Shown here: piece by piece, positions 25,941 to 28,748 of the stretch
How positions within the stretch are numbered: position 1 is the stretch's first letter
Layout: each line of letters opens with the position of its first letter
NCBI GenBank assembly: GCA_965112155.1
Contig: OZ218101.1
Strand: one strand, 5' to 3'
DNA from: Podarcis liolepis
Taxonomy: Eukaryota
DNA length: 64,000 nucleotides
The notes under the pieces: generated by a model
Told to the model about the DNA's origin: nothing
Seen by the model: the letters and a program-made list of their open reading frames with translations, nothing else
Database searches by the model: none
Made by a program: the position numbers and the translations under genes

Positions 25941-28165
25941 CATTGCTTGGCCCCTGCATGAGTCAACTAGGGGAATAGAGAAGGATCCTTTTATATGGGG
26001 CAGGGAACAGCAGCAGGCTTTTCAGGGTCTCAAAGTGACATTACAACAAGCCCCAGTGCTTGGCATCCAAACCCCGAGAAGCTTTTTACCCTGTTCACAG
26101 ATGAAGACCAGGGGGGTAGCCAAGGGAGCCTCATGCCAGAAACTGGAAAATTGGCAGCAACCTGTCGAATACTTGTCAGAGAAGCTAACCCCAGCAGAAC
26201 AGAGGTTGCCCCCCCCCCGTATGAGAGTGATTGTGGCAGTGGCCACCCTACTCACAAAGGGCAGATAAATTCACGTTTGGACAGGACACCAGCTGTGTAA
26301 CTCCAAGAGGAAGTGCCAGATGCTGTTATTACATTCACGCCTGAAGTTTCAGGTTGCCACAGCCCTTAACCTAGCTACCTTATTACAGGTAGGAGAAGGT
26401 GAACAAGGGAGCTGCCCACTCAGTCTTACCTGTGCCTGTAACAAAACCCACAAACCAAGTGGTTAATATAATTAGAGCCACAGGTAAATCACAAAAGGCC
26501 CCATTTTTGCAGTCTGTTACCTGCTGCCTAGGTGGCCAAGTAGCCCAGCACAAAATTTTTGTATATACCAGAGTGTCCCATTCCTTTATTGGGCCGAGAC
26601 TTGTTAACAAAATTGCAAGCCCAGATTTCCTTCCAACCAATGGGGAAGTAATGATGACAACTGGACCAGCAGGAGAGTTTTCTTTAGAAATGCCCCTGAG
26701 AGACCATTGGTGCTTGATGATGGTAAAAGAAGAGGAGGGAATCCTCCCTGTTAGCCTGCTTCATGATGTTGACCCTGGACTATGGGTGGAAGATAAAAAC
26801 CAATACCCATCCCACGACAGGCAGCTGAAGGGGTGTGGGTGCATTTGAAGCGATTGCTTCAACATGGAATCTTGAAACAATGCCAATCACAGTGAAACAC
26901 CCCACTGTTGCCAGTGAAGAAGGAAGATGGTGGGTACTGCATATAGGCCCCAAAGTTCTGGAAAAAAGGAAAGGAAGAACAGGACTTTGAAAAACCATTG
27001 ACCCAAGAAACAGGGTCTAATTGGGAGTTCATGTTGCCCTTGGCTTTGCTTAGAGTCTGTAGCCTCCCATTGAAACGTAGTCGCTTGTCACCCTTTTGAA
27101 GTGATGTTTGGGAGACCGGTTCCTTATGTGTGCATGCTTTCACCTATCCCTGCTCAAGATATGGAATTGAACAATTATGTACAGTCTCTCTCTCGAGATT
27201 CTCTCTCTCAACCCAGGCCCGAACTCCTTGCGTGACCAGTTTGAGCCAAGTGACGAGGTGTGGATAAGACTGGTCCCAGGCACCACTGCAACCGTGCTGG
27301 AAGGGCCCATCTGCTCTCCACACCCACAGCTGTGAAGATCGCTGGCACCACCCCTTGGGTCCACCACATTCAAGTGGAGAAAGCTGCTTCAGATTGGACT
27401 GTGTCTCAGCATCCTGAAGATCCCCTCCAGTGACGACTGCCTTGCTGATATCACTCCAGAGGCTGATATCTCTACGCACGGTGAAGAATTGGATGGGAGG
27501 GGCGCCCACAGGCAGCGCCCCCAACGTAGACATTTGTTCTCCAGCCAATTTAGAGGCACCACCAGGACTTTTGATATTGGTACCAGAACTCACTCCAGAC
27601 GATGTGGAACCACGTTACACCCTTGATGAACAGCAGTGGACCAGCCAAGAAGGAGCAACGCTCCAGGAAGGACCAGACAGCCGTGTTTTTGTGCCCCAAC
27701 ATCTGGCCAGCACAATTGTAAAGAATTACCACGAGTCCACCCATTTGGGAGGCCCAGCTGCTAAAGCACACCTTGGGAGAATATTCTACCTCAACTAACT
27801 GCTGCTATAACTAACTGCTGCTATATCCCAAAATGTGCCCTGTGCGCCAACCAAGAGACTGAGAACTATCACCCTGTGAACTTCTATATGGCAGGCCAAC
27901 CCCTTTCGTCCGAGGCATCCCCGCCAGTTTGGGGCAGATGGGAGATCACATCACCCAAGAACAAGTGCAATCCCTGTGTTTGTTGTGTGTGTTTGCTTCC
28001 TTTCCAGGTATTCCCTCGAGCGTACACCTGCAGTCCCGCGGCAGTCTCGCTGAGCCGGTTCACCAGTTCCTCTGAGTGACAGTGTCTGGCGACCCCCTCA
28101 TCCCCAACTGCAGTGAAAGTAGTCGAGGTGATCCCCTGGGTACATCACACGCATCTGAAGAAGGG
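25941..28165 (+). pseudogene. pol: ERV pro/pol fragments, deleted and out of order
   Basis: In order: RT connection (FIWGREQQQAF..APVLG; LNLATLL), protease ([26 protein letters not shown]), RT N-terminus (GILKQCQSQ*NTPLLPVKK), IN core (AYRPQSSG), IN CTD (TPTAVKIAG.TPWVH), IN zinc finger (YHESTHLG..CALC), second IN CTD (PTAVKVVEVIPWVHHTHLK). Confidence 0.88.
27975..28007 (+). promoter_or_regulatory. ERV env-type splice acceptor
   Basis: tgtgtttgcttcctttccag|G inside the integrase-derived region, the usual position of the env acceptor. Confidence 0.7.
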
Positions 28166-28340
28166 TGTCTGGACTTGCAAGAGAAATCCTGCTGACCCTC
28201 TGAAGTTGATCATCACCTTGTGTCTGACGCTACCAGGAAAAGCGTTAGGCCACGGGCAACGCGATCCTGCGACTAATCATCACAAGGACAGTTACAAAGA
28301 CTTTCTCTTTTCTCTCTTATTTTCTTTATTGACTTGCTCT

Positions 28341-28748
28341 ATGTCTTATTGCCCTGACCCTACCGAACCATACCGCCCTTATTGGCCTGCTGACCTCTGC
28401 TACGACTGGTTCGTCTTGCCGGTGGTAAGAGATGGCGTGCTCCTTGGCTATTGGAAACTGGGGTTTGATGAGATTACCGTATTGAGACACCCCACTGCCC
28501 CGTTGTGGCTCCTCTCCCACACCACTGACCAGCACGCGTGGACAGTGCTCTTACGGGAAGCTGCAGAGACAATCGAAATCTATCTAGTTCTGTACCGCTC
28601 TTGCTGTTGTGGGAGGGTAGTCAACTGTTATCCGGAAGGTAGAGCACTGTACCAACCTCATTTGATAGAACAGGTCCTACTCTTAACCCAGGTCATAGAT
28701 GGGACAGAACCTATCTTAATGCAAGTATTGCAGGGGTGGGAGCCTTAG
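28341..28748 (+). CDS. intact 135-aa ORF of unknown function in the env position (MSYCPDPTEPYRPYWPADLCYDWF...VLQGWEP)
   Basis: First ATG after the 28007 acceptor; no stops or frameshifts, unlike the neighbouring gag/pol; no motif I recognise. Confidence 0.55.
   Translation: MSYCPDPTEPYRPYWPADLCYDWFVLPVVRDGVLLGYWKLGFDEITVLRHPTAPLWLLSHTTDQHAWTVLLREAAETIEIYLVLYRSCCCGRVVNCYPEGRALYQPHLIEQVLLLTQVIDGTEPILMQVLQGWEP

Follow-up and report, generated by a model that had tools for sequence, protein, structure and literature searches.

Gamma-type retroviruses are the textbook simple retroviruses. Complex retroviruses encode Rev/Rem-like or Tat-like regulators, and the lentiviral accessory region comprises vif, vpr, vpx and vpu, the last of which shares a bicistronic mRNA with env. 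VL30 and the acute transforming viruses are defective retroviruses that depend on a helper. The accessory proteins of a virus are usually a guide to the host defences that they counter, and reptile anti-retroviral immunity has barely been mapped. Among reptiles, crocodilian endogenous retroviruses (ERVs) captured the host genes for KIT-ligand and nectin3, according to the accessible portion of PMC4299795. The accessible portions of PMC12690878, PMC8922424 and bioRxiv 10.1101/2024.07.05.601823 describe no accessory cassette comparable to the one reported here.

Here, we analysed an ERV of the lizard Podarcis liolepis that lies in a 64,000-nt stretch of contig OZ218101.1 (assembly GCA_965112155.1; hereafter the window) and carries an open reading frame of 135 aa, ORF-X or X. 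X is a real, undescribed family of retroviral accessory proteins in a 'complex' gamma-like lineage. Like VL30 and the acute transforming viruses, the element has intact LTRs, primer site and splice signals, has lost gag, pol and env by deletion and was amplified recently; unlike them, it retains a viral accessory gene that came, with its acceptor, from a second ERV lineage, and no host oncogene. It also resembles the crocodilian ERVs, RSV with src and WEHV with orfA/B, as far as the accessible part of PMC4299795 describes them, in having an extra ORF, in being a reptile ERV, in purifying selection and in env being kept or lost. The extra ORFs described there are recognisable host genes, whereas for X neither the host nor the databases yielded a homologue, and X sits in a modular cassette of several genes. 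No description of the element was found in the literature searched, with repeat libraries, most subscription papers and supplements falling outside that search.

Structure of the element in the window

The element is a young, deleted, recombinant, gamma-like ERV of 6.34 kb, flanked by a GTAC duplication, with LTRs that differ at one position (Table 1). As an earlier note on this sequence had stated, every gag, pro and pol piece is deleted or frameshifted, while the splice donor and acceptor are intact. The remainder of that description agreed with the sequence as well: the only ATG within 24150-24575 opens the three-codon frame in U5, the 333 nt from 28008 to 28340 contain none, and the ORF that follows is uninterrupted. 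The product is rich in W, Y, C and P (6, 9, 6 and 12 residues, respectively) and shows neither a signal peptide nor a membrane segment (highest Kyte-Doolittle mean over 19 residues, 1.32); it had no env family match in the domain search. Because other ATG frames of the element reach 140 aa (24987) and 101 aa (25995 and 27493), the length of ORF-X alone is no proof beyond chance; what raises it above chance is its conservation.

Table 1 Features of the ERV in the window (64,000 nt; coordinates from its first letter)
Feature	Position	Strand	Evidence or remark
5' target-site duplication GTAC	23654..23657	.	second copy at 30002-30005
5' LTR, 698 nt	23658..24355	+	1 mismatch against 3' LTR
Within 5' LTR: TATA-like; AATAAA; uORF (MDP, stop)	~24142; ~24249; 24329		
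Primer-binding site, presumably tRNA-Pro type	24362..24379	+	sequence
Splice donor AAG/GTAAGC, exon end 24575	24573..24581	+	sequence, leader survey, RNA joint
gag remnant, broken (MA, part of CA)	24931..25940	+	Gag_MA E=0.0026; blast to L058
pol remnants, broken, rearranged (RT connection/RNase H, protease, RT pieces)	25928..26930	+	domain and blast matches
Backbone-lineage integrase 3' end (L058/L122 type)	26935..27492	+	MLVIN_C
Accessory ORF Y' 5' piece (MGGAPTGSAPNV...), cut by inserted segment	27493..27589	+	translation, comparison
Second integrase 3' end, L046-type lineage, bearing the acceptor	27583..28240	+	78% and 67% to L046
env-type splice acceptor ...cttcctttccag/G, intron end 28007	27990..28008	+	sequence, RNA joint
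ORF-X, 135-aa accessory gene	28341..28748	+	start context TCTATGT, weak
Accessory ORF Y remnant, 58 aa, internally deleted	28753..28929	+	likeness to L046 Y
ORF Y' 3' piece	28834..28974	+	73% to L122; translation
env 5' stub, broken, W-rich leader, ATG 28975	28975..29113	+	
env 3' stub, broken (membrane anchor and tail)	29114..29276	+	89.5% to L122 env end
3' LTR	29304..30001	+	

Comparison with related proviruses showed that the backbone resembles L058 and L122 up to the start of Y' (27493) and continues with an integrase end of L046 type, the acceptor and X. After X, the Y remnant, the end of Y' and the two env stubs follow, the stubs being joined by a deletion near 29114. By this comparison, the element is shown to be a mosaic in which the integrase end of a second lineage, with its acceptor and X, interrupts the Y' of the backbone. 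X arrived together with its own acceptor, env was lost by deletion, and X is no replacement of env. The earlier suggestion that the splice route leads to this ORF instead of env was not supported: the element keeps env stubs, and its full-length relatives have ORF-X plus an open env.

A few further features were recorded. The LTR begins with TA, not TG, and a 21-nt repeat occurs three times immediately after the splice donor (24580-24648). By eye, the ERV lies inside the left end of a short, MITE-like TIR element (23647-23657 and 30002-30228), and a decayed C2H2 zinc-finger array (31700-32320) is found approximately 1.7 kb downstream.

Copies and integrity of ORF-X

The genome contains 139 ORF-X matches, 87 of which are full-length single pieces with 68-100% identity; 84 of these 87 are stop-free. 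We read 104 distinct loci; of a 13-copy subfamily with stops in X, 10 copies are not in this set. All 104 are proviral, and ORF-X is intact in 84 of them: in 39/39 window-type copies, 27/28 of the second group, 17/29 of the third, 0/4 of the fourth and 1/4 unassigned copies. The fourth group comprises 13 copies with stops in ORF-X among the genome matches, such that one subfamily multiplied although its ORF-X was broken. At one locus, L045, a deletion fuses X in frame to a piece of env (176 aa).

Both LTRs were present at 76 loci, identical to each other in 53 and at least 99.4% alike in 73, and no gag-pol frame exceeded 491 aa in 74 of the 76. A donor-like site was found in 75 of the 76 leaders and an acceptor-like site in 103 of the 104 loci. 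The window-type ERV is thus non-autonomous, with intact cis signals, many recent copies and no complete gag, pol or env, which bears out the helper-dependent element proposed in the earlier note. The X-bearing subfamilies (24356-24379 in the window; L032, L052, L068) differ in primer-binding sites, which we take to be Pro-, Glu- and His-like, and in leaders, a sign of repeated recombination.

Selection on ORF-X

Codon models were run on fixed trees, with recombination outside the model. For nine lineage representatives (88 codons), omega was 0.51 (LRT p=0.001 against 1), while 37 distinct window-type sequences gave 0.63 (p=0.055). Pairwise dN/dS was below 0.75 in 13 of 15 between-copy comparisons and approximately 1 or more in two pairs. 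Within groups, pN/pS was 0.73-0.88 for the window subfamily and 0.92-1.11 for the second group.

Among the 39 window-type copies, no frameshift occurred in the 408 nt of ORF-X, against 20 in 1,581 nt of flank (p=0.010; p=0.05 with the broken L115 added and p=0.08 without homopolymer events). No stop was seen in 44 window-like copies with 48 variants, where about 2 per 37 would be expected. In 23 whole elements, X and the gag/pol remnants have a similar density of substitutions, yet frameshifts, which number 16-34 per kb in the remnants, are absent from X. Low p values came also from indel tests of the second group (0.0003) and the third (0.001), but these were set aside because the flanks of both groups are recombinant and misaligned. 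The copies are young, as the 53 identical LTR pairs among 76 indicate, and they are not independent. X was clearly under constraint as a viral protein, and continued selection on X in the defective copies seems likely but is not proven. The selection invoked in the earlier note therefore holds across lineages and is only moderate within the defective family; intactness in sister copies and the frameshift deficit speak for it, and within-group pN/pS values near 1 and the 13-copy subfamily that spread with a broken ORF speak against it.

Splicing and translation

The leader donor was found joined to the window acceptor in RNA of a related organism, at low depth. Four runs were compared, three as raw reads and one, guessed to be RNA, as contigs; they share only about half of the indexed words and may therefore come from a related species. 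The joint 24574>28006 occurred in four raw reads of one single-cell run (three different starts, the shorter side reaching 61 letters) and in one contig of the run guessed to be RNA, so that the env splice route, claimed in the earlier note to be kept, is also used. Its offset is the one expected when a donor allele with one extra A is spliced to the same acceptor; 10 of 22 window-type copies have this allele. Most reads at the donor are unspliced, and the joint was absent from two bulk RNA runs (135 and 60 element reads, hardly covering the ORF body). In DNA, the intron was removed at none of the 76 loci with both LTRs, the shortest distance from LTR to ATG being 3,491 nt.

The absence of ATGs from the 333-nt stretch of the window has a probability of 0.013 against dinucleotide shuffles. 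The same acceptor-to-X leader is ATG-free in 37 of 39 window-type copies, 18 of 23 copies of the second group and 0 of 27 of the third. In three full-length relatives with a larger cassette (L046-L048, below), the 1,758-1,780 nt from the acceptor to the env start hold 6 ATGs, against a shuffle mean of 18-19.5 (as low in 0 of 1,000) and 19-22 on the reverse strand, whereas gag, pol and env have 14-22 per kb. Four of the six open the accessory frames X1, Y, X2 and Z, each in a weak context with a pyrimidine at -3; the env start has A at -3 (strong), and the stop of X1 adjoins the start of Y. Two relatives with X alone (L058 and L064) are also ATG-depleted (7 against 17), yet in them two ATGs lie before X. 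Candidates for additional acceptors are present, though weak. Given the depletion of ATGs, the weak accessory starts and the strong env start, the layout suggests one spliced polycistronic mRNA from which the cassette may be read by leaky scanning or re-initiation.

Full-length relatives and the accessory cassette

Six full-length loci have X between open pol and env. In three of them (L058, L060 and L064), the order is gag, TAG, pol (1205 aa), X and env (517 aa from ATG). In the other three (L046-L048; C7:59.52 Mb, C13:2.66 Mb and C13:55.29 Mb), it is gag, pol (1206 aa), X1 (126 aa in L046, shortened to 97 aa in L047 and L048), Y (138 aa), X2 (130 aa), Z (73 aa) and env (466 aa). Z is W-rich and hydrophobic and overlaps the env start. 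X2 is a paralogue of X (about 35% identical, E about 1e-8) with a basic C-terminal tail, RCSRRSRARS; the X1/X2 alignment has 19 invariant columns over 13 sequences, with identity down to 26%. Y shows no homology to X (probability 0.5%), and Y, X2 and Z had no Pfam match.

X was absent from all eight further pol relatives. One of these has no ATG frame of at least 60 aa between pol and env, one (L125) has only a Z-like ORF before env, three have a Y-like ORF, Y' (104-117 aa, with a YSCGC motif), and three are decayed. The varied contents indicate that the pol-env spacer is a modular cassette. Eleven pol frames, all from this genome, were placed in a tree, whose deepest split separates the two X-bearing lineages and in which the L058 type falls among elements with Y' only; this placement points to X having moved by recombination.

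Several observations on these relatives stand apart. The YSCGC motif is common to Y of L046-L048 and Y' of L120-L122. L125 belongs to a family of approximately 140 near-identical gamma-like copies, mostly with an open pol frame of about 1198 aa, a very recent burst. The env of L058, L060, L064 and L120-L122 opens with a long W-rich hydrophobic leader like ORF Z of L046, which suggests a fusion of Z with the env leader in one of the lineages, the two being separate in the other. Two proteins, P0002 (X1-like) and P0006 (X2-like), come from contigs of equal length (1,551 nt), which by that length alone hints at a cassette in another sample.

The backbone is that of gammaretroviruses and class I (ERV1) elements such as MLV and XMRV. 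Gag of L058 and L046 has Gag_MA, Gag_p30 and a single CCHC knuckle; in the full-length relatives, gag and pol share one frame with TAG between them. The reverse transcriptase matched p80 RT chains (MLV-type) at E=2e-211, against 1e-51 for Pr125Pol, and the integrase has MLVIN_C. Their Env is gamma-type, with CxxC, a furin site and CX6CC, of which the window retains only stubs. The leader donor, the acceptor inside pol and the 4-bp target duplication are shared with gammaretroviruses as well. Unlike them, the lizard lineage has additional ORFs, one to four in number, in the pol-env interval, and it thereby departs from the simple genome without accessory genes of the strict genus Gammaretrovirus. 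In its small ORFs between pol and env, its duplicated pair (X1/X2, like Vpr/Vpx), its small membrane ORF overlapping the env start (Z) and its presumed leaky scanning, the cassette resembles that of lentiviruses; it differs in the gamma-like backbone, in the lack of any sequence or fold match found, and in what appears to be one acceptor for up to five cistrons, not one per gene.

Predicted fold and homology of X

AlphaFold models of X and X2 reached mean pLDDT values of 67.6 and 67.3, with residues 1-80 of X at 74-88 and the predicted cores of both at about 70-88. The two models agree in an extended N-terminus, a helix, an antiparallel meander of 5-6 strands and a low-confidence C-terminal helix. 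The invariant residues of X1/X2 are mostly aromatic or proline, which would suit a core or a binding surface; no catalytic motif was noticed in X.

The X family had no usable match in Pfam, PDB sequences or the ESM Atlas. In protein collections, only six assembly proteins matched X, a viral contig collection held no relative, and X showed no sequence homology to lentiviral Vif, Vpr, Vpx or Vpu. With the medium-confidence models of X and X2, Foldseek gave no match at E<=0.001, the best hits of the VIA structure search (Z 5.2 and 5.0) were generic beta meanders, and the fold matches listed included no TCL1/MTCP1 or Vif chain. A likeness of X to MTCP1 was considered and dropped, the profile-profile probability being 0.5% in a different register and Pfam TCL1_MTCP1 (PF01840) matching 0 of 13 members. 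Locus L119 (C21:19.03 Mb) is the host's own three-exon MTCP1 gene, an exon of which is 100% identical to the Podarcis muralis MTCP1 record and 98% to that of Lacerta agilis, as befits a lacertid host of wall-lizard type.

Discussion

We put at roughly 70% the reading that X is a small gene between pol and env of gamma-like lizard proviruses, likely translated first from the spliced env mRNA, that its soluble product is likely an adaptor against host restriction or silencing, and that the element in the window is a helper-dependent recombinant that kept X. The proposed sequence of events starts from full-length parents ordered gag-pol-X-env or gag-pol-X1-Y-X2-Z-env, as seen in the genome. Recombination would then have placed the integrase end, acceptor and X of a second lineage within Y', with gag, pol and env deleted, as the window-type mosaic displays. 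Once the leader donor is joined to the acceptor, as in the low-depth reads of a related organism, ribosomes scanning the spliced RNA would begin translation at X, and in the parent would pass by leakage to Y, X2, Z and env as well; this step is suggested by the depletion of ATGs and the weak accessory starts. For packaging and copying, the genomic RNA would depend on Gag-Pol supplied by full-length relatives. By analogy, X may bind a host restriction or silencing factor, in which case copies still expressing X would be favoured. For X taken alone, the adaptor role against restriction or silencing falls somewhat short of even odds; position, size, solubility, paralogy and dispensability for spread make it the likeliest role, and we rate an RNA regulator and a growth factor below it. 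Against the favoured reading as a whole weigh the weak amino-acid constraint within the window subfamily, the breakage of X in 12 of 29 copies of the third group and all four read of the fourth, its shortening in two of the three cassette-type full-length copies and its absence from eight close relatives.

The most serious competitor holds that X worked in infectious ancestors and is now a passenger, near the 3' end, refreshed by recombination and carried by copies too young to decay. Values of pN/pS of 0.7-1.1 within the two largest defective groups fit this account, as do the spread of 13 copies with X broken, an indel density that falls below that of gag in the 3' stubs too, and the scarcity of long homopolymer runs in X. 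It sits less well with 39 window-type copies that have neither frameshift nor stop in X while frameshifts occur in the flanks on both sides, with the retention of the acceptor and the ATG-free leader in 37 of the 39, and with the detection of spliced RNA; we consider it rather unlikely, if by no means negligible. Improbable, to a greater degree, is a role of X (or X1/X2) as a Rev/Rem-like or Tat-like regulator that balances spliced and unspliced viral RNA. Such a role would suit the first position on the spliced RNA and the basic tail of X2, but X itself has no arginine-rich stretch, and close relatives spread without X, including the near-identical family of about 140 copies (judged from the one copy read, L125).

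The earlier note had left open whether the gene was accessory or cargo, and only the former was upheld, no host source gene having been found. A captured, v-onc-like host gene, for example an AKT co-activator of TCL1/MTCP1 type that drives cell growth, drew on a likeness in the stretch LW..D..Q.TW..E..DTV and on single-pair shuffle tests against host MTCP1, which reached 1-9 of 2,000 for 4 of 13 members. MTCP1 had been picked as target after the fact, neither the profile-profile comparison nor the Pfam family upheld the likeness, all the loci read are proviral and no clearly homologous host gene was found, which leaves capture highly improbable. Least credible of all is an origin of ORF-X as a decayed piece of env SU or as a frame open by chance. 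X does occupy the usual place of an env start, and ATG frames of similar length arise by chance in the element; against this, six loci have complete env frames alongside X, no env family matches it, and X has a paralogue and shows purifying selection. The ordinary env SU fragment against which the earlier note had weighed its proposal was thus not what we found.

A wider reading of the favoured account, to which we give tentative credence of about one in three, is that lacertid lizards host a recently active 'complex' gamma-like lineage in which a lentivirus-like accessory region evolved independently (two new-fold paralogues, a small membrane protein and another orphan family, translated together with env by leaky scanning of a single mRNA), and that helper-dependent derivatives were selected to keep X, as X disables an antiviral or silencing pathway of reptiles. 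If a young lineage carries up to four orphan genes between pol and env as a modular block open to exchange, accessory complexity would have arisen again in reptiles. The ATG-depleted layout of apparently five cistrons would represent an unusual translation strategy, and X, being small, soluble and separately expressible, would offer a direct handle on reptile anti-retroviral immunity.
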